45,885 bases of DNA from a phage. Of the stretch, positions 2,990 through 43,375 are shown piece after piece; position 1 is the stretch's first letter, and every line of letters starts with the position of its first letter. Both the position numbers and the translations under genes were made by a program. The DNA lies in NCBI GenBank assembly GCA_021146325.1, contig GCA_021146325.1_4321.1. One strand, given 5' to 3'. The notes under the pieces are model-generated. The model searched no databases and was not told where the DNA came from. It was given only the letters and a program-made list of their open reading frames with translations.

Positions 2990-3679
2990 ATGGTTATTTG
3001 GTCTTTATTTGATGGTTCAGGGCTGGCTGTGAAAGATTGGGCTGAGGCTTGTCACGAGTGCTACTGTTTCAACTTTGATGAGTCTGACCACGGTAGTTAC
3101 GGGGATTTAAATGCAAAATTTGAACATGAGAACATCACCTACGTTAATGCCTGGATAGATGGCAACTTCGACTTTGATGTGAAGCCTGATATCATTTTAG
3201 CGTTCCCGCCGTGTACGGATTTAGCCGTGAGCGGGTCAAGGCACTTTGAGCGAAAGCGACTGGTTAACCATAACTTCCAGATTGAAGCTGCGGAAACATG
3301 TAAAGTTGCTTTTAACTTGGCTAATAAGTACGAAGTCACATACATGATTGAGAATCCAATCAGCGTACTGTCATCACTCTGGAGAAAGCCTAATAAGACT
3401 TTCCACCCATATGAATACGGAGGCTATTTGCCGGAAGATGATTTACACCCGTTTTTTAGCGACCTAATAAAGCCAAAAGACGCATATCCCAAGAAGACAT
3501 GCATTTGGTATGGCAATGGGTTTAAATGGCCAGAGGCGATTCCTGTGGACGTTAACGATGGATTCTCTGACCAATACAAGAAGCTTGGTGGGAAGAGTAA
3601 GAAGACAAAGGTAATTCGCAGTCTAACTCCTCGCGGTTTTGCAAAAGCAGTCTTCATAGCAAATAGCACGAATAGATAA
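2990..3679 (+). CDS. DNA (cytosine-5) methyltransferase, short orphan type
   Basis: motif I LFDGSG, motif IV FPPCTDLAVSG, motif VI-like ENP, C-terminal LTPRGFAKA; ATG at 2990 has RBS GAGAGG (the ORF track began at TTG 2957). Confidence 0.7.
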   Translation: MVIWSLFDGSGLAVKDWAEACHECYCFNFDESDHGSYGDLNAKFEHENITYVNAWIDGNFDFDVKPDIILAFPPCTDLAVSGSRHFERKRLVNHNFQIEAAETCKVAFNLANKYEVTYMIENPISVLSSLWRKPNKTFHPYEYGGYLPEDDLHPFFSDLIKPKDAYPKKTCIWYGNGFKWPEAIPVDVNDGFSDQYKKLGGKSKKTKVIRSLTPRGFAKAVFIANSTNR

Positions 3680-3706
3680 AGACAAATCCCAAGGATGAGA
3701 TATCAT
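3661..3706 (+). promoter_or_regulatory. promoter cassette copy (IR TAGCACGAATAGATA, 22 bp, TATCAT, CATTGAAACGAAA) overlapping the methyltransferase 3' end
   Basis: IR core 3664..3678; motif supplies codons NSTNR and the stop. Confidence 0.6.
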
Positions 3707-3717
3707 TACTCCATTGA

Positions 3718-3977
<260 letters not shown>

Positions 3978-3978
<1 letters not shown>

Positions 3979-4913
3979 TGGCTCAGGGTATCTATATAGA
4001 CCTTAATGACGGAAGGAATCCAATGACAATTACCTCAGGGATGAGGGCGTTAAGCTTCGCTGGAAACTTTAACGTTAATAGTGGTGGCTTTAGTAAGACA
4101 TTCTCAATTAAGGGAAATGAAGGTGCATCACGTTTTTTAATTCCTAATAATGGTGCCTTCAGCTTCGAGCTTGACAGGGGTGTTGAGCTTTATTATATAA
4201 GTGGATTTTCATCAACACCTACATCTGGGACAATCTCAATAGGTTCAGTGAATGGATATTCTGACAGGGTCACGTCATTTTCAGGGACTGTTGTTGAGGT
4301 CTTGAGGGCATCAAGCGGCCATGGCATATACGTTGCTGATAGTAGTGATTTTGCATCAATAACAACTGCTGACAGGTTGCTAGTATGCAAGTACTCTAAA
4401 AGGGTAACTTTTACAGGTTCATTCAATCTCCCTATTTATGGAATACCGTTCGGTAAGTGGGATAATGGTGGAGTTTCAGTTGAGTACAACGGAAGCAACC
4501 AGCTTATTTGCACAAACATAAACACAGTAAATACTGGGAACACTCCTGGAACTGTTACACTTGACTTGCTAATATTTCAGTTGGTTACACCAACGCCTGG
4601 GCCTGGCATAAACATTTTCAACTCTAACAATGTTTGCACATTCTCAACATTGACAAGACCATTGGTTGTGTCTGGATTTATAAGTCTGTCAGGAAGCAAT
4701 CAATACATAGGTAGTTCATACTTCCCAATACTTAGATGTGGGTTTAACACAAGGGCGATACGTGCTTACAAGGAGTTGCGAAATAAGGGAATTGTTATGT
4801 CCGGTGGATACGTTAGATCTGGTACTGGATCAAGGATTTTGAGATACGTTATTGGTAATAGACCAGATGTAACCATATCAACTCCATTGCCATACTTGCC
4901 TGATATGTATTAA
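3978..4913 (+). CDS. hypothetical Gly/Ser/Thr-rich protein of unknown function
   Basis: 312-aa ORF from ATG 3978 (RBS AAGGAG); opposite strand to the tail module. Confidence 0.55.
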
Positions 4914-10476: not shown

Positions 10477-10514
10477 ATTCTCTCCAATAAAAAAGGCCCT
10501 CTATGGGCCTTAGT

Positions 10515-10896: not shown

Positions 10897-13878
10897 TTAG
10901 TTGTAACCCCTCAGATAAGCAAAGGCTCTTCCGCCCTGCTGGAATGACTTGCTGATTTCCTCAGCAACGATAACCTTAACTCCAGATTCTATCGCCTTGG
11001 CATCATTTCCGCCACCAATTCCAGAGTTTACGTTAACCGTCACGCCGCCAACACTGACATTCGTGCCACCAACAACTCCACCATTAGCATAGCCAGAGGG
11101 CCCACCAACAGCGCCGCCATTTGCATAACCTCGCATTAGCTTGTACAGGTTCTTAACGCCAATCCTGCTTGTAGCTTCTTTTGTGAATACAAACTCACCG
11201 CGGTGCACAGTTCCAGCAGGTTGATACTTCCCGCCGTCTCCAGTGTAGCCGCCACCAGCAAAGCCAATTGCTGACTTTATTGACTCAAAGGCACTACCTG
11301 CTCCAGTGTCACCACCAAAGCTCTTAATTGTAGATTCAATAGCCTTTACCAAAAGTAGCTGAGTTGCAATTTTCGCAATCATTTTCAGTATGTTTGCCGT
11401 GAACTCCCTGAAATTAGTCTCTCCAGTGGTTACAAGGTTTGTAATCTGGTAGGTAATTCCATCAAAAGCTGCGACAGTCAAATCCTTAGCAATTTGGTTG
11501 AAGTCAGTATACTTCTCAGTTAAGTCAGCAAGCGTTGAAGTTACACCAGCTTGCCAGTCTGACCTTAGGTTATCTTCCTGCCTGTAGTATTCTTTTCTTG
11601 CTTCCAGCAGATTTTGGAAATCAACATCATCTACAGAGCCACCCTTGTTTACCTGATTGGACTCTAGCGCCTGAAGTTCTCCTGCCCTTTGCCGCTCCCT
11701 TTCGGATAGACCCGCAGCAAGTGAAACATTCTTCGCCTCATTGGTAATCTGTATTGTCTTCTTAAGGTTGTCATCAAGTAACTTGTTTGACTTCTCCTGA
11801 AGCACAATCTGGTCACCAAGTTCAGCCTTCTGTTTAGCCTGTTCAAGAATGATATTCTTCTGCGCAAGTAGCTTAGCCTGTGATTTTGTAAGCGTACCAT
11901 CCGCTTGTCTTTGTTCAAGTATTGCAAACTTCGCTTCTTCCTGGAATAACTGCTTTCTTTCATTGCTTATTACATCATTTATCGTTCTGTGCTCTTGTAA
12001 GACCTTTAACTGAGCCTGAAGTGCAAGAACGCCAGATTCATAAGATAAAGTTAAATCCCTTTCTTCTTTTACAGCCTTTTTCCTCTCACTCCTTGCTTTC
12101 TTTATCGTATCATACTCATCGGCAAGAGCCTTCTTCCTTGCTGCAAACTCCTTATCGGTTGATGCATTATTGCCGCTAAGGTTGGTGTTATTGTTGTTCT
12201 CGACATAACCAAGCTCACCCTTCCTGATTCTCGCATCTCGCTCAGCTATGCTTTTTGCTAACTCCTCATTTTGCTTCTTAGCTGCATCAACAATCTTTTG
12301 CTGCTCAGCGATTGCTTCATTGCCTAAATCGCCAAGTCCAGGTATTGACTGAAGTGTCTTGGTTGCTGCTATTGCAAACTCGCCCAATAGGATATCACCG
12401 GAGTTTATTAACGACCTTATCTGCTCAATAGTCCCAGCAACAACGTCAGTTATTAAGTTAAGCGCCCCAAGCGTCCTTTTGCTTATACCATCCCAAATCT
12501 CACTTACAAACTTCCTGAAGCTATTCCATGCGCTCTCAAGAGGGTTAAGGCTTAGTGCTACGTCTGCTAGCCTGTTTTCCATAACGTTAGCGAATAGCTC
12601 AGTAGCTGCGGTTACAGCCTCTGTTTCTCCAGCCGTCTTCCTGATATTCTCAATGTATTTCAATTGCCCAGACTGAAGGAAGTTGAACTGCTTATCGAGT
12701 GCAATCAGACCTTGAATTGGGTCCTTTGTAATCTGATCAAAGTATCCAAGAATAGTTTTCGAGTCTGTTGATGTTACAGTTGCCCATTGTGCTGTCGCCT
12801 TGGTTATCTTATCTATCTGCGTAAGAGTCAGATTACCGTTTGCTACCAGGCTGTTAGCTATCTCCTGGATAAGTCCGCGCGTGGCTAGTGTTGAACTCTC
12901 AATGCTATCAACAACCTGGTTTATTTGCCCTGTTGATGTGATTGTTGAGTTTCCAACCAGCGTTATTGTTGCTGCTAGCTCTCGTGCGTTCCTATCAGCC
13001 TGATAAGCAGCAATACCCAAGGCCCCAAGAGCCAGACCCAGAGTCCCAACAACCGCCGTTAATGGGTTAATGGCTGCCAGTGCAAACCTTGCTGTATTGC
13101 CGATACCACCAAAACTATCCTTAATCTGACCGCCCTGCTGGACTGCTACAAGCCAGATTGGCATGCCGCTAGCAAGAGATGTAACGATATCTGTAATCTG
13201 CGCTGGAAGCTGTCGAATTGCTTGCTTGTATTGACCGGCACTAAGCCCAGACTTAACAAAAGCGGAGCTTTGCTTCTGCAATTGTACCGCAGATGCCTCG
13301 GCAGCCTTTCCAATCCTGTCGATAATCGGTGCAGCCTGGTCACTAACTCCTAGCTGAGCAGCCTTAAGCTGAAGAAGTTCAGTCCTTGTCAGGCTTGCTG
13401 CATTCGCCTCGTTCTCAAGAGATTGAATGAACTTTTGCGCTGCTGTTGTTGCTTTCTCTTTATCTATTGATGCCTGTAGTGCAGCCCTGCCTTCTTCGCT
13501 AAGAGCGGCTTTAGACCTGTTTAGCTTATTGATTTGAGTTTCAATAACAGAGCCAAGCCTGAAGAATTCATCATCAGGAACTATCCCGGATTCAAATGCT
13601 TTGTCCAAATCTGTTGCTGCTTTCTGCAACTTCAGGAATTTAGCAGCGGTTGGGTCTATGGCTTGCTGAAGTGATGCGAAAGATTTGCGCTGCTCCTCAA
13701 GATGCCTTGCAGTGTCCCTTGCTTGAGTCTTGGCTACAAGTTCGGCGTTGACGAAGCTATTAATGCCTGTTGCAGCTTGCTCGTTTGCTTGCCTGAATTT
13801 CTGTAAGGATTGCGTACCCTTATCGACCTGAGCTACGTCGACGGCTAGCGTGATACCAGCAATTTCGTTAGTTGCCAT
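10897..13878 (-). CDS. tail tape measure protein
   Basis: 993-aa ORF, coiled-coil rich, Gly-rich C-terminus, downstream of the G/GT chaperone. Confidence 0.9.
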   Translation of the reverse strand: MATNEIAGITLAVDVAQVDKGTQSLQKFRQANEQAATGINSFVNAELVAKTQARDTARHLEEQRKSFASLQQAIDPTAAKFLKLQKAATDLDKAFESGIVPDDEFFRLGSVIETQINKLNRSKAALSEEGRAALQASIDKEKATTAAQKFIQSLENEANAASLTRTELLQLKAAQLGVSDQAAPIIDRIGKAAEASAVQLQKQSSAFVKSGLSAGQYKQAIRQLPAQITDIVTSLASGMPIWLVAVQQGGQIKDSFGGIGNTARFALAAINPLTAVVGTLGLALGALGIAAYQADRNARELAATITLVGNSTITSTGQINQVVDSIESSTLATRGLIQEIANSLVANGNLTLTQIDKITKATAQWATVTSTDSKTILGYFDQITKDPIQGLIALDKQFNFLQSGQLKYIENIRKTAGETEAVTAATELFANVMENRLADVALSLNPLESAWNSFRKFVSEIWDGISKRTLGALNLITDVVAGTIEQIRSLINSGDILLGEFAIAATKTLQSIPGLGDLGNEAIAEQQKIVDAAKKQNEELAKSIAERDARIRKGELGYVENNNNTNLSGNNASTDKEFAARKKALADEYDTIKKARSERKKAVKEERDLTLSYESGVLALQAQLKVLQEHRTINDVISNERKQLFQEEAKFAILEQRQADGTLTKSQAKLLAQKNIILEQAKQKAELGDQIVLQEKSNKLLDDNLKKTIQITNEAKNVSLAAGLSERERQRAGELQALESNQVNKGGSVDDVDFQNLLEARKEYYRQEDNLRSDWQAGVTSTLADLTEKYTDFNQIAKDLTVAAFDGITYQITNLVTTGETNFREFTANILKMIAKIATQLLLVKAIESTIKSFGGDTGAGSAFESIKSAIGFAGGGYTGDGGKYQPAGTVHRGEFVFTKEATSRIGVKNLYKLMRGYANGGAVGGPSGYANGGVVGGTNVSVGGVTVNVNSGIGGGNDAKAIESGVKVIVAEEISKSFQQGGRAFAYLRGYN

Positions 13879-13915: not shown

Positions 13916-14544
13916 CTATTTCTTGGCGTTCATCATATCTAAGGCTTTAGCCTCAAGTATTCTGATGTCGTTAAGTACCATTTCGTCATCATCTATTTTA
14001 TAGACTTTGAACAAGAATGGAAGGCAATTATAATCAAGGCCTGTGGCACCGCAAGCCCCTACTCGCCATTGAGTTGACATGGCACAGTACACATCCCAGC
14101 TTTGCATCATTGTTTCATCGAAGTATAACTCTTCAGGCTCATCACCTTCATAATCGGAACGTTTCATTCCGATAGCTTCGAGTTCAGCATCCGTTGGCGG
14201 TGACTGGTATTGTAAGTATACTGCGCGTTTTAGTTTTTTACTCGCTGACCCGCAAGTGCTTTCATGTAGCTATCCATCAACGATGGCACGGCTCCCGGGA
14301 AAAGGTTGGCAAACTCATCTACGTTATCATCGTTAAATGGCTCTTCTAAATCCCAGTCAGAGCAGATTTCGTTAATCAATTCTTTAGTGCTGAAGTTTTC
14401 ACGGTTAAGAATCTCCTGAAGTTCAGATGATTTCTTGTGCTTAACTGTTAGTACCACCTCTGCATCTTCACCATTCGCTAACTGAAACTTAACCGGAAGT
14501 TTAAAGTCAGGCAGCGCCTTAAGTGAAAGTTTAAATTTTGCCAT
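13916..14544 (-). CDS. tail assembly chaperone GT fusion made by programmed -1 frameshift
   Basis: slippery A AAA AAC at the end of the G frame; the -1 frame stays open into ORF 13916..14167. Confidence 0.6.
14230..14544 (-). CDS. tail assembly chaperone G-like
   Basis: 104-aa acidic ORF between major tail and tape measure genes. Confidence 0.7.
   Translation of the reverse strand: MAKFKLSLKALPDFKLPVKFQLANGEDAEVVLTVKHKKSSELQEILNRENFSTKELINEICSDWDLEEPFNDDNVDEFANLFPGAVPSLMDSYMKALAGQRVKN
14233..14239 (-). other. -1 frameshift slippery heptamer A_AAA_AAC
   Basis: minus-strand AAAAAAC just before the G stop codon. Confidence 0.6.
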
Positions 14545-14579
14545 CTCGTTATCTCCTTTGTTTGTGTTGAATGATTATA

Positions 14580-14828
14580 TTACTTTGATTCGTTTTTTAC
14601 AATGTTGTGAGCAACTTCGGTGCACACCTCGCGACCATAATGCAGAATCTGATTTGTCTTATCGCCAGCTACTTTTTCACAATGAGAATATGCACTATTA
14701 AATTCATGTTCATACTTTATTGCATCAGAGTTAGCGGTTGCGCCACCAGTTGGGTTGACAATCTGAATTGCCAGGTAGAAAGCACCAAGAGCAGCAGCAA
14801 GTTTGATGATATTTTTAACGTTGTTCAT
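14580..14828 (-). CDS. small secreted or membrane protein, moron-like insert in the tail module
   Basis: 82-aa ORF with hydrophobic N-terminus; own promoter cassette and upstream terminator. Confidence 0.5.
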   Translation of the reverse strand: MNNVKNIIKLAAALGAFYLAIQIVNPTGGATANSDAIKYEHEFNSAYSHCEKVAGDKTNQILHYGREVCTEVAHNIVKNESK

Positions 14829-14861
14829 TTCATTAATCTCTCATTTCTTTTCGATGAATGA

Positions 14862-14907
14862 ACTATACAGCAATCCGCGACTTAGCCTTTAACAAAAAGT
14901 GCTATCA
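14862..14907 (-). promoter_or_regulatory. promoter cassette copy (IR TAGCACTTTTTGTTA, 22 bp, TATAGT, CATCGAAAAGAAA)
   Basis: IR core 14890..14904. Confidence 0.55.
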
Positions 14908-14933
14908 ATAAAAAACCCTCCGAAGAGGGTTAA
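14906..14933 (-). terminator. rho-independent terminator after the major tail gene
   Basis: hairpin CCCTC-CGAA-GAGGG then TTTTTATTG on minus. Confidence 0.6.
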
Positions 14934-14945
14934 TTTTTATGCCAG

Positions 14946-15596
14946 TTAAGAAGCTACAGAACTCATCCTGCCGCGAATAGATACCGCAATGGATACCGTT
15001 TCGATTTCGTTAACACCAATGCTCGGCGTGTCGTTGAAAGAGATACTGCCAGACTGGAGACGCATCTCGCTAGCTCGAGGCACGAACAGACGGATAGCAA
15101 CAACAGTACCAGCTTCGTCATAGTTACGCAGAATCGGATATATCGGGTTGGTGTATTCGTGCGCGAAAGTGTAGGTATTAGTTACCGCAGATTTATAAGT
15201 TGGAATCTGTTTCTCACGCTCATCGGATAAACACTGGAAGTTAACGAACTGCTGTTCGCCGCCGTCAGTTGATACGTCCTGAACGCAAGGAACCTCAAGC
15301 CAGCTAAGAATCTTAACCACTTCACCAGTTAAACCGGCCGGGAACTTGGTGGTGTTGGAGGTATCAATACCTTCAACAGTTACCCTTGAACCAGATACAT
15401 TGGTAACGCGAACTTGCTTATCAGCCAGCAGGGTCGAAGTTGAGCTGGTAAATAGCAGGTAATCACCTCTTGCAATATTATCAGCGCTGGACAAAGTTAA
15501 AACAGGAGTAACAGCATTGGAAATTGCAGTTACGTCAATAGTATTTCCCCTGGAGCCTTCTACGAAGACCTGAGTGCCATTACTAAGATGGGCCAT
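14946..15596 (-). CDS. major tail protein
   Basis: 216-aa ORF at the V position just upstream of G/GT. Confidence 0.7.
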   Translation of the reverse strand: MAHLSNGTQVFVEGSRGNTIDVTAISNAVTPVLTLSSADNIARGDYLLFTSSTSTLLADKQVRVTNVSGSRVTVEGIDTSNTTKFPAGLTGEVVKILSWLEVPCVQDVSTDGGEQQFVNFQCLSDEREKQIPTYKSAVTNTYTFAHEYTNPIYPILRNYDEAGTVVAIRLFVPRASEMRLQSGSISFNDTPSIGVNEIETVSIAVSIRGRMSSVAS

Positions 15597-18527: not shown

Positions 18528-18621
18528 TCTTGCTTATTCCTTTTCAGTTAGGTATGTACGAGTCAATTATACACTAGTTTGAGGCCCGCGCAATGATTCT
18601 ATCATGACCAAGCCGAAGGCA

Positions 18622-18650
18622 ATAAAAAACCTCCAGAAGGAGGCTTGTTT
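18622..18650 (-). terminator. rho-independent terminator
   Basis: hairpin CCTCC-AGAA-GGAGG then TTTTTTATTG on minus. Confidence 0.6.
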
Positions 18651-22355: not shown

Positions 22356-22709
22356 TTACTCGAATTTTACTTCGAACTCGATTGATGATGTTTTCACTCC
22401 ATTAAGTGTTAACTGGCGAACCTCCCTTCTGACTTCATAAAATGCCTCTTTAGTTACTATGTCTTTGTTGATGAAGTATTTAATCCCAGCCTTTTCAACT
22501 TTAAAATTATCACCTTTAACGACAAAATCGGTAGGCTCTATAACTTCGAAATCATAAACACTAAGATTAATTACGCCCAAATAGCCTTTATCATCCTTAA
22601 CTTTGACGTATTCATTATTACTTCCAGGCGTTCTTGATAAGTCATAAATCTTACCAACGGTAAAATCAAAATAACCAGCTTTTTTATACCCTTTAAATAC
22701 TGCTTTCAT
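22356..22709 (-). CDS. hypothetical protein, moron-like unit between TerL and portal
   Basis: 117-aa ORF flanked by its own promoter cassette and terminator. Confidence 0.55.
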   Translation of the reverse strand: MKAVFKGYKKAGYFDFTVGKIYDLSRTPGSNNEYVKVKDDKGYLGVINLSVYDFEVIEPTDFVVKGDNFKVEKAGIKYFINKDIVTKEAFYEVRREVRQLTLNGVKTSSIEFEVKFE

Positions 22710-22738
22710 TTTTTACTCCTCTCGTTTGCGTGAAGTAA

Positions 22739-22784
22739 CTATAAGCCATCCTTGGCGGCGCGTCTTTAGCAAAACGTGCTATTT
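22739..22784 (-). promoter_or_regulatory. promoter cassette copy (IR TAGCACGTTTTGCTA, 22 bp, TTATAG)
   Basis: IR core 22767..22781; its TAG is the TerL stop codon. Confidence 0.55.
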
Positions 22785-25527: not shown

Positions 25528-25603
25528 TGGTGTTCCGCACTGGACTCGAACCAGTAACTAAGACTTAGGAGGTCTTTGCGTTATCCTGTTACGCCAGCAG
25601 AAC
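25528..25603 (-). tRNA. tRNA-Arg (anticodon CCU)
   Basis: 76-nt cloverleaf folded by hand: 7-bp acceptor stem, D-arm GCGT/ACGC, anticodon loop CUCCUAA, T-arm ACTGG-TTCGAGT-CCAGT, 3' ACCA. Confidence 0.8.
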
Positions 25604-28550: not shown

Positions 28551-28649
28551 ATTCGTTACTCCTGATTGGTTGCTCTTCGTTAAGATGAAACCATGGTATC
28601 ATGAATATACGCGTTATCAAGTGTTATGTTGTGTTTATATCTGCATTGG

Positions 28650-28935
28650 TTACGCTTTTTGACCTCTCAGCCCAGCTATAGCTGGTGTAATTACCCTGTG
28701 TAAGATTTTACGCGGATTCGCCGGGGGTATGCATATGTATCTATATAGATAAAATTAGTAGTTTTCATAGAAAAACTATCGACCCATCCATACGACCAAT
28801 CTACACCATATACATACATATATATAATAATAATAATAATATAGTAAAAGGTTGATATATATAGATATTATTATGTAACCATTGCGTAATCTAGCGTGGT
28901 AGGCGTGTATGATTCTTCGGAAGCGCACCTCATAT
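28650..28935. repeat. AT-rich non-coding element B, homologous to element A at 2585..2880
   Basis: palindrome CCAGCTATAGCTGG at 28672..28685, (ATA)n, 65-bp block 28815..28879 nearly identical to 2766..2827. Confidence 0.8.
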
Positions 28936-29036
28936 ACACACCATAACTTCGATAACGTGTATATCCAAATTGGCTCAGCAAGAATCAAAATCAACTTGTA
29001 TGGTAGTTCATCCACCATTTATTCACCCTCACATCA

Positions 29037-32746: not shown

Positions 32747-32772
32747 CCCCATTACGGGGCTTTTTTGTTTTT
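32744..32772 (+). terminator. rho-independent terminator
   Basis: hairpin GCCCC-ATTAC-GGGGC then TTTTTTGTTTTT. Confidence 0.7.
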
Positions 32773-33138
32773 CCTGAATATCATTAAGAGCAGAATGATG
32801 ATGACGCAAAACATGATTCCACTCCCAATCCACGGGATTGCAGACGAATCATTGTTGGTGATTTCAATCTTCTCAGCCGTGATTGTTGATGCCTTGATTG
32901 AGTTATCAGAAGTCTTTTTACCGCTTGAACTATCAAGAGTGTCAACCTTAGAGTTCTTCACTTCAGCCTTTGCGCTGGAACTTGAATCAACCTTATTAGT
33001 TAGCCCTACTCCAACCTTGTTATTCTCCGCACCTGCTTGAGCGCTAATCTCTGGCTTACTACCAATCAACCCGGTCAGCGCAGATGTTGCCGAGCAACCA
33101 GAAAGCAGAATTACCGCAGCAATTAATACAGCCTTCAT
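32752..33138 (-). CDS. unimolecular spanin (outer-membrane lipoprotein with C-terminal transmembrane helix)
   Basis: lipobox LLSGC, C-terminal TM IMFCVIIILLLMIF; follows the endolysin gene as in phage T1. Confidence 0.7.
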   Translation of the reverse strand: MKAVLIAAVILLSGCSATSALTGLIGSKPEISAQAGAENNKVGVGLTNKVDSSSSAKAEVKNSKVDTLDSSSGKKTSDNSIKASTITAEKIEITNNDSSAIPWIGSGIMFCVIIILLLMIFRKNKKAP

Positions 33139-33620
33139 TTACCCACCCCACTTAAGCATAATTTAATCTCCTCGTTGCGCCTGTTAACGAGGCCTTTAAC
33201 AACTTTTAGCTTGCCATTTACTCGAGCTTTATTCCAGGAGGCGAGAGCATTACAACCCTCTTCAATCTTGCCCTGATTAATCAGCTTAACAGCTGTTGAC
33301 TTCCTCATTGCAGAACCGCCAACGTTGTAGCTAAAGCTGATTAACGCAGCCCTTGTTTCTGCAGCAATTGGATATGTAACTGCATCCTGCACATACTTGC
33401 CATGAATCTGAATGTGCTTCTCCAGTAAGTTCCTGCACTCCCTTGCACTGTACTTTTTACCCCACACTACATCAGGACCAGTGATACCTGAACAAACCGT
33501 AGGAATGCCTGCAATGTCCATGTAAGGCTTGTATTCCACACCTTCTACTAGCTCAATAATCGGCGCTGCGATGTATATTGCCGCAGCCGTCGCTGCACTA
33601 ATTAACAGCTTCTGCTTCAT
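33135..33620 (-). CDS. endolysin, lysozyme-like with N-terminal signal-anchor-release-like segment
   Basis: catalytic spacing E-x8-D-x5-T (EGVEYKPYMDIAGIPT) and hydrophobic N-terminus. Confidence 0.75.
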   Translation of the reverse strand: MKQKLLISAATAAAIYIAAPIIELVEGVEYKPYMDIAGIPTVCSGITGPDVVWGKKYSARECRNLLEKHIQIHGKYVQDAVTYPIAAETRAALISFSYNVGGSAMRKSTAVKLINQGKIEEGCNALASWNKARVNGKLKVVKGLVNRRNEEIKLCLSGVGK

Positions 33621-33835
33621 TACTTACTCCTGATATTGATAGCTGTCTTTAAATCACCCGACTCTAGAGCCTTCCTGATTGCCTGACTGTCCTTAAACCT
33701 CCAACATGCTCCCCACAGCCCGAAAACAACAAAAGCCACAGTGCTGATTATTGCTATAGTCATTTGACCAGTTGCGGCACTAGTTACAGCGGCCCCGCCG
33801 GTTGATGCCGTGGCGGCGTTAATTACTTCCCTCAT
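33620..33835 (-). CDS. holin
   Basis: 71 aa from Met MREV (RBS AAAGGTGA) with hydrophobic TM segment and charged C-terminus; first gene of the lysis cassette. Confidence 0.6.
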   Translation of the reverse strand: MREVINAATASTGGAAVTSAATGQMTIAIISTVAFVVFGLWGACWRFKDSQAIRKALESGDLKTAINIRSK

Positions 33836-33878
33836 GTGATCACCTTTAAATCCTAATTTGTCAATACATAGTGCAAAT

Positions 33879-33907
33879 ATCATACATTAGCACTTTCTGA
33901 ATTGTAA
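33879..33907 (-). promoter_or_regulatory. sigma70-like promoter (TTACAA, 17 bp, TATGAT) upstream of the lysis cassette
   Basis: hexamers and spacing read on the minus strand. Confidence 0.35.
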
Positions 33908-33963
33908 GCACAAAAAAAAGGGAGCCAAAGGCCCCCTGCTTGCAAATCTATGTTTTGTATATT

Positions 33964-34137
33964 CTATTCTGCGATAATAAATTCCACCAAAGAGCCATCA
34001 ATTGGCGCCAGGATGTGAGTCATATCGTCTCCGTAAATCTTGTAGTAACCATCTCCAAGCGACTCTCCGCTATAAGGTTGGCTCTCGGTAAAAGGCAGTG
34101 TCTTGGAGTTGTTTTTAACGCAGTATAATTTAGTCAT
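33964..34137 (-). CDS. small hypothetical protein
   Basis: 57-aa ORF downstream of a promoter cassette; not in the ORF track. Confidence 0.4.
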   Translation of the reverse strand: MTKLYCVKNNSKTLPFTESQPYSGESLGDGYYKIYGDDMTHILAPIDGSLVEFIIAE

Positions 34138-41450: not shown

Positions 41451-41924
41451 ATGTGTGAAATTGACAAGCGAACTATTAACGGCAATAACGGGACCGTCCG
41501 CACGCAAGACAAGAAGCAACGCAAGCGACCTTCAGGCTACTACGTATTGAAAGATGAAGTAAAGGCTGGTCTACGCGCGCGTCTGGAAATGATTCTTGAT
41601 TTCTACGGCACGAAAGCCAATATCGCCAAGCAGTTAAATGTATCTCACCAGACTGTAGAACAATGGTTTAATCGCGGGATGATTTCGGCTCGAGGGGCTC
41701 AGAGAGCGCATAATGCGTACAAGCGAAATAAGGAAGGGTTCCGAGCTACATTCTGCCGACCAGACCTGCAATTCGACGGTAACGGAAAGCCGCTAACACT
41801 TCGATGCAAGAAACGCCATATGCTTCGCGTAGTTACCGAGGCAGAACTAGCAATAAAACCACCCTGTCGACCGTGGCGCAAGAATAAGATTGCTAACGAA
41901 GCAGCACGAAAAGCTAAAGGGTAA
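41451..41924 (+). CDS. Cro/YdaS-like HTH DNA-binding protein, putative transcription regulator
   Basis: HTH GTKANIAKQLNVSHQTVEQWFNRG; basic C-terminal half. Confidence 0.55.
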   Translation: MCEIDKRTINGNNGTVRTQDKKQRKRPSGYYVLKDEVKAGLRARLEMILDFYGTKANIAKQLNVSHQTVEQWFNRGMISARGAQRAHNAYKRNKEGFRATFCRPDLQFDGNGKPLTLRCKKRHMLRVVTEAELAIKPPCRPWRKNKIANEAARKAKG

Positions 41925-41975: not shown

Positions 41976-42455
41976 ATGAACTGGCATGATTATTTTTACT
42001 ATGTAGATGGCAAATTGCATTGGAAGATTAGCACTGCAAGACGTGTTAAGGTTGGCGATGAGTGCAACTCACTATCTACATCTGGCTATTACAAAGTGTC
42101 TGTTAATGGCTTTAGGACTTATGTACATAGAGTTGTGTGGGAGATGTTTAATGGATAACTTCAAAATGGCGACTACATTGATCATATAAACCATAACAAA
42201 TTAGATAACAGAATAGAAAACCTAAGAGTAACAACAAATCAAGGTAACTCAAGAAATTGCAAGCTTAGCGTTTTATCAACAACTGGTTATTGTGGAGTGG
42301 CAAAGCTAAATCACGGAAAATTTAAGGCTCACATCACGGTTGACGGCAAGCAGCTACACCTTGGTAACTTCGATACTCCAGAACGGGCGTATAAAGTAAG
42401 AATTGAAGCAGAGAGAAAATACAACTTTCACGAAAATAACGGGTTAAGCAAATGA
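41976..42455 (+). pseudogene. HNH homing endonuclease with AP2-like DNA-binding domain, interrupted by in-frame TAA at 42156..42158
   Basis: ...VHRVVWEMFNG [TAA] LQNGDYIDHINHNKLDNRIENLRVTTNQ...GYCGVAKLNHGKFKAHITVDGKQLHLGNFDTPERAY; same frame before and after the stop. Confidence 0.6.
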
Positions 42456-43375
42456 ATTACGATAAGAATGAAGTTATACCTAAGATGGCCGGATTGTGGA
42501 AATCATTTTATGTAAAGGAACTTGGTTGGAATGATAGACACATAAGTAAGAAGCACGGACCATGCCCATGCTGCTTTGGCACTGACAGATTCAGATTTAC
42601 CGACGAAATAGGCAGTGAAAAAGGAAATGGCGCGGCAGTTTGTTCGAAATGCGGAAGTGACTCCGGTATAGGATGGGTCATGAAGTGCACCGGATTGTCC
42701 TTCGCCGATTCAGTAAATTTGCTTGGTGACTGGCTGAACTTAACACCAATTGAGGTTATAGTTAAAGCAAACAAGCAAGCCTCGAGAACTAAGCGTTACA
42801 AAATGGGCGCTCAAGTCGACCATGAGAAAGTCCTGGAGGTTATGGAGAGAACTAAGAGAGTGGAATCGAGTCCACTCACGACATACGAGGGTATTTATGA
42901 CGCGTTTGGTTTTGATGTTGGTATAGCTAAAAATGGTTCAATGATTCACGCAATCCCTTGTTCGATGGTTTATGAAGATGGGCTTAGTGATGAGTTCTGT
43001 AACGTAATGTTTATTGATGAGGATTCAAATGTTAAGTTCCTTGCTGGTGATTACACTCGTGATTCTGTTTCCGTTATTGGTTCTAAGCAGGATGATAGTT
43101 ATACTTATGTTGTTGACAATTATATTGATGGCATACGTGTTCACCTTGCTACTGGTGGGCGCGAAGTGTTTGTTGCTTTCTCCTGTTACAATATGGAGAT
43201 GGTTATCCACCGCGACAAGTCAAGGAAGTTCAGAATTGCTTGCCGTGATTCTGATAGCGATATACTCGCTGTTGCTGACGATAGGGGTGTTGATGTTGTA
43301 GTTCCTAATGACGGTGAGTCATTTAAAACAGGCATACGAAAGAAAGTGTACAAAGCAAACGACTTGCTAAACTAA
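42452..43375 (+). CDS. DNA primase (zinc-binding plus catalytic domains)
   Basis: N-terminal Cys4 zinc-finger-like CPCCFG...CSKCG, 307 aa; upstream of the helicase in the replication region. Confidence 0.7.
   Translation: MNYDKNEVIPKMAGLWKSFYVKELGWNDRHISKKHGPCPCCFGTDRFRFTDEIGSEKGNGAAVCSKCGSDSGIGWVMKCTGLSFADSVNLLGDWLNLTPIEVIVKANKQASRTKRYKMGAQVDHEKVLEVMERTKRVESSPLTTYEGIYDAFGFDVGIAKNGSMIHAIPCSMVYEDGLSDEFCNVMFIDEDSNVKFLAGDYTRDSVSVIGSKQDDSYTYVVDNYIDGIRVHLATGGREVFVAFSCYNMEMVIHRDKSRKFRIACRDSDSDILAVADDRGVDVVVPNDGESFKTGIRKKVYKANDLLN

Follow-up and report, generated by a model that had tools for sequence, protein, structure and literature searches.

The window analyzed here, a stretch of 45,885 nucleotides (45.9 kb) from contig GCA_021146325.1_4321.1, is the nearly complete genome of an E. 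coli siphophage of the Drexlerviridae, subfamily Braunvirinae, a family that is regarded as virulent. We find that ORF82, an open reading frame (ORF) of 82 codons on the minus strand of this genome, is a genuine gene that is confined to the Braunvirinae, carries export-type sequence features, and sits in a slot of the tail region where the resident gene is swapped among relatives. Read along the transcribed strand, the locus comprises, in turn, the major tail (tube) gene, a terminator, a repeat element, ORF82, and the tail assembly chaperone gene. These statements on the anatomy of the locus very probably hold, and they describe ORF82 as a real, if unremarkable, accessory gene whose swap slot is well defined. 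As to function, we propose, with a probability of roughly 0.4, that ORF82 acts in the envelope as a non-structural factor that would stop superinfecting or re-adsorbing phages at a step past receptor binding.

ORF82 is a genuine gene confined to the Braunvirinae

Searches with tblastn found ORF82 homologues in 82 phage records; almost all of these homologues have exactly 82 codons (88 in the ACG-M12 group), and at every locus inspected the homologue lay between the tail-tube and chaperone genes. The region around ORF82 is 91-93% identical to those of ES, AN_ECEAS and the TR2/Christensenvirus group, with Rtp more distant. An alignment of ten sequences, reaching down to 48% identity, contained 25 invariant columns, and the ratio of nonsynonymous to synonymous substitution rates (dN/dS, Nei-Gojobori) was 0.14-0.32 for informative pairs. 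Furthermore, phrog_22925, a PHROG family that has no assigned function, covers residues 1-82 of the 82 at an E-value of 6.6e-29. ORF82 is thus a genuine gene, and it has the length and the hydrophobic N-terminus (residues L10-V24) that the original prediction, made from the letters of the window alone, had ascribed to it. The same prediction had counted four cysteines in the protein, where there are two, C50 and C69, both invariant in the ten homologues. An antisense ORF of 84 codons (14607-14861, plus strand) was rejected as a real gene on account of the purifying selection in the minus-strand frame, and was further ruled out by the conserved length and ribosome-binding site of ORF82.

A profile search of 1.84 billion protein representatives returned ORF82's own cluster only, and a word-indexed search returned eight near relatives; together with the 82 records this confines ORF82 to the Braunvirinae within the Drexlerviridae. 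No match to ORF82 was found in Pfam (E ≤ 0.1), NCBIfam, PADLOC or the sequences of the PDB, and because the profile search gave its own cluster alone, there are no distant relatives to lend it a function. Between the window and EC3a the ORF82 proteins are 57% identical, while the tail tubes reach 85%, the chaperones 71% and the tape-measure N-termini 73%. The G+C content of ORF82 is 39.4% compared to 43.7% for the genome, and its G+C content at third codon positions (GC3) is 33.7% compared to 42-44% for its neighbors, a modest shift for a gene of 249 nt.

Genes are swapped between the tail-tube and chaperone genes

In five representatives of other Drexlerviridae lineages, DanielBernoulli (Tlsvirus), PaulSarasin (Changchunvirus), AHP42 (Rogunavirus), Sushi (Webervirus) and ISF002 (Tunavirus), a spacer of only about 70-115 nt, with a terminator and no ORF, separates the tail-tube gene from the chaperone gene. 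ORF82 is therefore an insertion between two genes that stand side by side in related phages. The Braunvirinae share a conserved terminator, repeat, -10 hexamer and leader (as far as the ribosome-binding site), and what follows is a gene of either the ORF82 type or a lipoprotein type. Proteins of the second type have 126-128 residues, a lipobox (LLAGC in Rtp34, LTGC in TR1) with Asn at position +2, and two further cysteines; their genes are found in Rtp, MM01, RobRod40 and AugustePiccard, with a distant form in TR1. The lipobox together with Asn at +2 indicates that the Rtp34-type and TR1 proteins are probably outer-membrane lipoproteins. They share with ORF82 the slot, terminator, repeat, leader, export and a pair of cysteines, and are likewise uncharacterized, but differ from it in length and in having a lipobox; homology between ORF82 and Rtp34 was rejected, as the two are unrelated in sequence.

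Along the cassette, as far as the ribosome-binding site, the window matches TR1 at about 93% identity, and the chaperone proteins of the two are 99% identical. Since the flanks are preserved to this extent, only the gene between them has been exchanged, and the difference between the two at this locus is a clean exchange of a single gene. Among about 90 records with a chaperone of at least 60% identity, the slot is filled in nearly all: 82 carry an ORF82-type gene, five an Rtp34-type gene, and TR1 its own form. Because the same flanks enclose an unrelated lipoprotein in Rtp, TR1 and a few others, the slot is, as far as these comparisons of sequence go, a swap site for envelope-targeted accessory genes. 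This agrees with the earlier view that ORF82 does not encode a virion component: its absence from five lineages, its replacement in TR1 and Rtp, and its faster divergence (57% identity compared to 71-85%) are those of an accessory rather than a core virion gene.

A further insertion was seen in TR2, where 164 nt placed right after the repeat encode a very hydrophobic mini-ORF of 46 residues (MILIGMLTAFFYYATGLTFWVSLGAAIGTYFVSAVLALIVIALRNR) upstream of the ORF82 homologue (extracted locus 3130-3401), with the first ~20 nt of the cassette duplicated at the junction. CY1, TR3 and Rao1 were assigned the same insertion on the basis of an identical two-piece, 965-nt match.

ORF82 has the sequence features of an exported protein

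The first nine residues of ORF82 carry two lysines, K5 and K9, and are followed by a hydrophobic core of 15 residues, L10-V24 (Kyte-Doolittle 2.08). Directly after the core stands an invariant N25-P-T, and G28, which completes an NPTG motif, is conserved except in ACG-M12; F17, Y18, I23, N25, P26 and T27 are invariant in all ten sequences. Small residues in an A-x-A-like arrangement at -3 and -1 occur before potential cleavage sites, after A32 and after the invariant A36. In a heuristic analysis ORF82 thus has the parts of a Sec export signal, i.e. a basic n-region, a hydrophobic core, a polar c-region and small residues at -3 and -1. A lipobox was not found in ORF82, whose first cysteine is residue 50, with no L-x-x-C after the hydrophobic core.

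The features bear in different ways on whether the N-terminus would be cleaved or kept. The charge distribution favors an N-in, C-out topology, and the core, at 15 residues, has a length seen more typically in signal peptides than in stable membrane spans. At the A32 site, P0004 and ACG-M12 have Glu at -3, counting against cleavage there; the A36 site fits in all four members checked (window, P0004, P0008 and EC3a) but lies 12 residues past the core. In comparisons of the window with Rtpvirus and Guelphvirus members, with many synonymous changes, dN was 0.10 for residues 1-28 and 0.55-0.59 for residues 29-82. This suggests that the N-terminal helix is retained and has a function of its own, and the conservation of the segment therefore argues against simple cleavage.

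For phage MSK, SignalP 4.1 and TMHMM have predicted a signal peptide and a transmembrane helix, respectively, in MSK_000011, which follows the major tail gene MSK_000010 and lies three genes before the tape measure gene MSK_000014 (PMC8421802). The MSK genome encodes an ORF82 homologue of 57% identity, and by gene order MSK_000011 would be that homologue. The predictions for MSK_000011, together with K5/K9, the L10-V24 core, the NPTG motif and the A-x-A-like sites, uphold the earlier proposal that ORF82 is targeted to the envelope.

An AlphaFold2 model built on a shallow alignment has helices at residues 2-24, 30-54 and 57-81 at a mean predicted local distance difference test (pLDDT) score of 67.6, so that about 55 predicted helical residues with the two invariant cysteines follow the N-terminal signal or anchor. 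Foldseek searches of the PDB and BFVD with this model, whose pLDDT is only 67.6, gave nothing better than an E-value of 0.19. An intramolecular C50-C69 disulfide is unproven and draws no support from the low-confidence hairpin of the model.

A family-typical repeat with a fixed -10 hexamer precedes ORF82

On the strand of ORF82, and beginning ~78 nt before its ATG at 14828, lies TTGATAGCACTTTTTGTTAAA, which matches the repeat of T1-like phages. In TLS, which has been described as a virulent phage, this 21-nt repeat (aaATAGCACnnnTTGnTAAAA) occurs at 21 sites, oriented with transcription and ~76 nt before start codons; it is also present in T1, Rtp and Rogue1, and its role was left open between an enhancer and a 'stoperator' (PMC11447400). 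The T1 late region was described in the same paper as a series of 'transcriptons' bounded by terminators (PMC11447400), and the unit analyzed here likewise follows a rho-independent terminator.

The copy upstream of ORF82 contains the imperfect palindrome TAGCA-N5-TGTTA, and across copies the repeat core is the palindrome TAGCA-N5-TGCTA. Within the element at 14862-14907, TAGCACTTTTTGTTAAA (14904-14888) is followed 20 nt on by TATAGT (14867-14862). When one mismatch was allowed, TAGCAC-N7-TAAA occurred 19 times in the window compared to 4.2 expected; we put the copies of the element in the genome at about 14. A YAnnnT hexamer (TATAGT, TATCAT, TATAAT and similar) was present 19-21 nt downstream in 14 of the 15 repeat sites examined (P about 4e-13), and a same-strand ATG 54-67 nt downstream was also present in 14 of the 15. 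Several copies share a leader, CATCGAAACGAAA, and the leader of ORF82, CATCGAAAAGAAA, also stands behind the repeat copies of genes starting at 1208 (minus strand), 30041 (plus) and 37721 (minus) and is kept upstream of both ORF82-type and lipoprotein-type genes in relatives. All Braunvirinae loci inspected have the repeat, with the hexamer conserved and the spacer between repeat and hexamer diverging. Throughout the window, repeat copies mostly precede non-structural genes, such as those for Erf, a methyltransferase and helicases.

A generic promoter scan made no call at 14862-14907, where there is no usable -35, and a canonical sigma-70 promoter was rejected for this element, since TTGATA and TATAGT, probably the pair behind the original proposal, are 35 nt apart and TTGTTA and TATAGT 22 nt apart. 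Of the promoter cassette proposed here in the original prediction, the repeated element is therefore well supported, while its reading as a canonical sigma-70 promoter is not. If transcription starts ~7 nt after the hexamer, i.e. near 14855, the spacing between repeat and hexamer would center the palindrome near -42, a geometry that would suit a promoter which lacks a -35 and depends on an activator. What is added here to the description of the T1-like repeats is this model of a promoter with a palindrome near -42 and a -10 hexamer; the hexamer at a fixed distance of 19-21 nt, with its statistical support, goes beyond the TLS paper.

A candidate for the protein that binds the repeat is the 157-residue product of the ORF at 41451-41924, which has the same length as rtp52, lies upstream of a putative primase ORF (42452-43375) and is divergent from a helicase gene. 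Its matches to helix-turn-helix families are weak only, and we place it as a candidate Rtp52 homologue by length and neighborhood rather than by sequence comparison. The Rtp genome paper (Wietzorrek 2006) reportedly linked Rtp52, a helix-turn-helix protein, with conserved inverted repeats that lie upstream of genes.

Several further observations concern the repeat. The only other copy in the structural block (22765-22781) precedes an ORF of 117 residues (22356-22781, minus strand) that matches phrog_14592, annotated 'virion structural protein', and sits between ORFs that we take, by size and order, as large terminase and portal. In ISF002 (Tunavirus, extracted locus 1378-1506) and PaulSarasin (Changchunvirus, 1391-1500) the tail-tube/chaperone spacer holds the repeat in inverted orientation (TTTTAACAAAAAGTGCCAT), where it stands between a -10-like box, TGTAAAAT or TGTAGAAT, and the ribosome-binding site; there it would be downstream of the promoter, in an operator-like position.

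ORF82 reads as the first gene of the chaperone and tape-measure unit

The terminator that had been predicted after the major tail gene (14906..14933) was confirmed in the fold of this segment: a 7-bp stem with a UUCG loop (14931-14914) is followed by U6AUU to about 14906, with a folding energy of -11.1 kcal/mol and a z-score of -2.6 against shuffled sequences. Both stem-loop and T-tract recur unchanged in AN_ECEAS, TR2, ACG-M12, TR1, Rtp, EC3a and JulesPiccard, and a terminator is present at the equivalent position in relatives that lack ORF82. Because it is conserved in these relatives, the terminator belongs to the tail-tube gene and not to the ORF82 unit. Terminators at 59-88, 10482-10511, 14903-14932 and 18617-18646 share the flank CAATAAAAAA and a GC stem, and form a small repeat family of minus-strand gene ends.

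Downstream of ORF82, the scan found no terminator between 14580 and 14544, and the 35-nt spacer folds to 0 kcal/mol. Because nothing terminates before the chaperone gene, ORF82 reads as the opening gene of a transcription unit with chaperone and tape measure and is apparently co-transcribed with the chaperone gene. A sigma-70-like promoter, TTGTAA-17-TATAAT, which matches at 10 of 12 positions, overlaps the last ORF82 codons, and equivalents are found in EC3a (TTGCAA-17-TAGAAT, an annotated promoter in the record) and ACG-M12 (TTGCAA-17-TACAAT). In its -10 and leader it resembles what comes straight after the terminator between the tail-tube and chaperone genes of AHP42, and it is probably the ancestral promoter of the chaperone gene. 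The simplest history would be that a 'repeat promoter plus gene' unit was placed between the tail-tube terminator and a pre-existing chaperone promoter. The -35 of this putative promoter falls within codons I76-V77-K78 of ORF82, of which I76 and K78 are invariant; these two residues may be under dual constraint, from protein and promoter.

A post-receptor block as the proposed function of ORF82

In the mechanism that we propose, ORF82 would be read from the phage's own repeat-type promoter, with a palindromic operator near -42, a -10 and no -35, which is probably activator-dependent, and transcription would run on into the chaperone and tape-measure genes. The product would enter or cross the inner membrane via the Sec pathway and would either be anchored by its conserved N-terminal helix (N-in, C-out) or be cleaved near A32 or A36, leaving ~50 helical residues with the two invariant cysteines in the periplasm. 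From there it would alter the envelope of the infected cell to the phage's benefit, most likely through a post-receptor block in the periplasm or inner membrane, and this block would complement an outer-membrane lipoprotein of the Rtp45 type that acts on LptDE.

Every gene seen in the slot encodes an exported or membrane protein. The window also encodes a homologue of the superinfection-exclusion lipoprotein Rtp45, and its gene is preceded by the same repeat element as ORF82 (copy at 3664-3680). From the periplasmic side Rtp45 binds LptDE, and it keeps the receptor-binding protein from attaching (PMC12685063). ORF82 homologues are present regardless of the terminal receptor, i.e. both in IME253 (FepA) and in JeanPiccard (LptD), while the lipoprotein alternative is found in AugustePiccard (LptD) and in Rtp (LptD target predicted) (receptors from PMC8594841). 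That ORF82 is independent of the receptor argues against receptor masking and for a later step.

The nearest functional parallel is gp15 of HK97, a small inner-membrane protein encoded beside the chaperone genes, which blocks genome entry with the receptor untouched and depends on the incoming tail (PMC3594210). Like this YebO-like moron, ORF82 is a small protein with a single N-terminal hydrophobic helix, encoded in the tail operon beside the chaperone genes and absent from related phages, and it is by analogy to the post-receptor, tail-dependent exclusion by gp15 that we propose exclusion for ORF82. Homology of the two was rejected, however, with an hhalign probability of 0.4% and no Pfam family at E ≤ 0.1. 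Furthermore, the gp15 gene lies between chaperone and tape measure, has its own annotated terminator and is expressed from the prophage, whereas the ORF82 family belongs to virulent phages. ORF82 also resembles Rtp45, Cor and Llp, small exported cysteine-containing proteins of T1- and T5-like phages that act from the periplasmic side, but unlike them it has no lipobox, is unrelated in sequence, lies at a different locus and is present irrespective of the terminal receptor. Spackle and Imm of T4, a virulent phage, are likewise small exclusion proteins that are exported or sit in a membrane. A fold search of the PDB with the ORF82 model gave no significant match to any structure, Spackle included (best E = 1.0), a weak negative given a model pLDDT of 67.6.

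Several points weigh against exclusion as the function of ORF82. Any function, localization or timing given to a member of its family is a prediction, and the repeat may be an operator or a roadblock rather than a promoter, as left open in the TLS paper (PMC11447400). No homology to exclusion proteins was found (hhalign against gp15, 0.4%; Pfam, PADLOC and NCBIfam; no fold in the PDB or BFVD at E<0.1). The structural model is weak (pLDDT 67.6) and, by its helix boundaries, would not have C50 and C69 facing each other. ORF82 also sits in the late structural operon of a virulent phage, where a tail-related role is possible, and the phage already encodes an exclusion lipoprotein. In the literature searched for virion proteomics of Rtp-like phages, we found only bands of MSK from SDS-PAGE that were matched by molecular weight (PMC8421802), and these do not settle whether ORF82 is structural.

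The alternative that survives best, though we consider it unlikely, is an envelope-located host-takeover or counter-defense factor that would, for example, inhibit a membrane or periplasmic abortive-infection sensor or protease, or modulate envelope stress. The export features of ORF82, its place in an accessory swap slot and its rapid divergence fit this equally well, as does the position of most repeat copies in front of non-structural genes. However, the Pfam, PADLOC and NCBIfam searches gave no similarity to known anti-defense or defense-associated families, and the slot's other resident is a lipoprotein of the outer-membrane type; in these phages such proteins are best known as exclusion factors (PMC12685063).

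A tail-related protein, either a membrane-associated helper of chaperone and tape-measure assembly or a minor virion or ejection protein with a membrane-inserting helix, is less probable again. Other lineages build the same tail without ORF82, the gene has been exchanged for that of an unrelated lipoprotein while the chaperone stays 99% identical, and a Sec-type signal would take the product out of the cytoplasm, where tails assemble. These points outweigh, in our view, its place as the first gene of the chaperone/tape-measure unit with no terminator between, its purifying selection, and the filling of the slot in nearly every Braunvirinae record.

A modulator of lysis timing or membrane integrity, antiholin-like or acting in lysis inhibition and encoded away from the lysis cassette, seems more doubtful still: although ORF82 would be a small single-pass membrane or periplasmic protein, like many lysis regulators, the PHROG and Pfam scans gave no similarity to holins or antiholins, its swap partner is an outer-membrane-type lipoprotein, and four ORFs in a repeat-driven run (32752-34137) resemble, by size and position only, a separate lysis cassette.

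The original prediction had taken ORF82 for an independently transcribed, moron-like unit. The unit does have moron-like traits, namely the insertion, the promoter-type element and a mild shift in composition, but its signals are those of the phage family itself, the upstream terminator belongs to the tail-tube gene and nothing terminates before the chaperone gene, so that independent transcription is not upheld. A classical autonomous moron, acquired horizontally with its own promoter and terminator and expressed independently of the phage for the host's benefit, is accordingly most improbable, since the insertion between otherwise adjacent genes and the slightly low G+C and GC3 are set against the lack of a terminator of its own, upstream signals native to the family, no homologue outside the Braunvirinae among 1.84 billion representatives, and a virulent family with no prophage state, to which prophage expression does not apply.

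If ORF82 is indeed a post-receptor exclusion factor, it would offer a handle on the poorly understood passage of the DNA of T1- and Rtp-like siphophages across the periplasm and inner membrane, and would mean that virulent phages can combine receptor-level exclusion, by Rtp45, with post-receptor exclusion. A bolder version, which we regard as unlikely, is that the slot is a dedicated swap site behind a regulator-controlled promoter and that ORF82 founds a new class of periplasmic or inner-membrane inhibitors of tape-measure-mediated DNA entry in virulent siphophages, receptor-independent and working alongside Rtp45. Rtp-like phages are recurrent fermentation contaminants, and their use in LptD-directed phage steering is under consideration; the exclusion genes that they carry bear on the design of cocktails and could make production strains resistant.

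Other features of the window

The coordinates of the locus and of the neighboring genes are collected in Table 1.

Table 1. Features of the ORF82 locus and of related genes in the window (columns: feature, position, strand, evidence or remark)
Major tail (tube) protein gene	14946-15596	-	PF08813, E 4.8e-66; phrog_584, E 1.6e-84
Intrinsic terminator of the tail-tube gene	14906-14933	-	stem 14931-14914, UUCG loop, U-tract
Family-typical repeat/operator TTGATAGCACTTTTTGTTAAA	14888-14908	-	matches TLS consensus aaATAGCACnnnTTGnTAAAA
-10-like hexamer TATAGT	14862-14867	-	20 nt downstream of the repeat; no recognizable -35
Conserved leader CATCGAAAAGAAA	14844-14856	-	followed by ribosome-binding site GAGAG, 14842-14838
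ORF82, 82 residues, small predicted exported protein	14580-14828	-	phrog_22925, E 6.6e-29
Sigma-70-like promoter TTGTAA-17-TATAAT, putative	14574-14602	-	10/12 matches; overlaps last ORF82 codons
Tail assembly chaperone gene	14230-14544	-	PF08748, E 3.3e-32
ORF matching the second chaperone-region gene of T1-like phages (DUF1799)	13916-14167	-	
Tape measure gene	10897-13878	-	
Rtp45-type superinfection-exclusion lipoprotein gene	3748-3978	+	92% identity to Rtp45
Candidate Rtp52 homologue, 157 residues, helix-turn-helix regulator, candidate repeat binder	41451-41924	+	length and neighborhood

The Rtp45-type gene is followed by the gene of a 314-residue phrog_1265 protein (3664-4913, plus strand, for the unit), whose position matches that of rtp44 and which is a candidate receptor-binding protein. 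Because of the Rtp45 homologue and this rtp44-positioned protein, the terminal receptor of the phage is predicted to be LptDE.

Two non-coding regions, 2540-2900 and 28600-28960, which are ~26 kb apart, are homologous over roughly 350 nt and share a nearly identical AT-rich core of ~90 nt (…ATATATAATAATAATAATA…AGTAAAAGGTTGATATATATAGATATTATAATGTAAC…). A plus-strand repeat-driven unit begins just downstream of the first region, and one begins about 200 nt downstream of the second. Neither region had a match in an Rfam scan, in which the sole match in the window was a single tRNA-Arg gene with anticodon CCU (25528-25603, minus strand).

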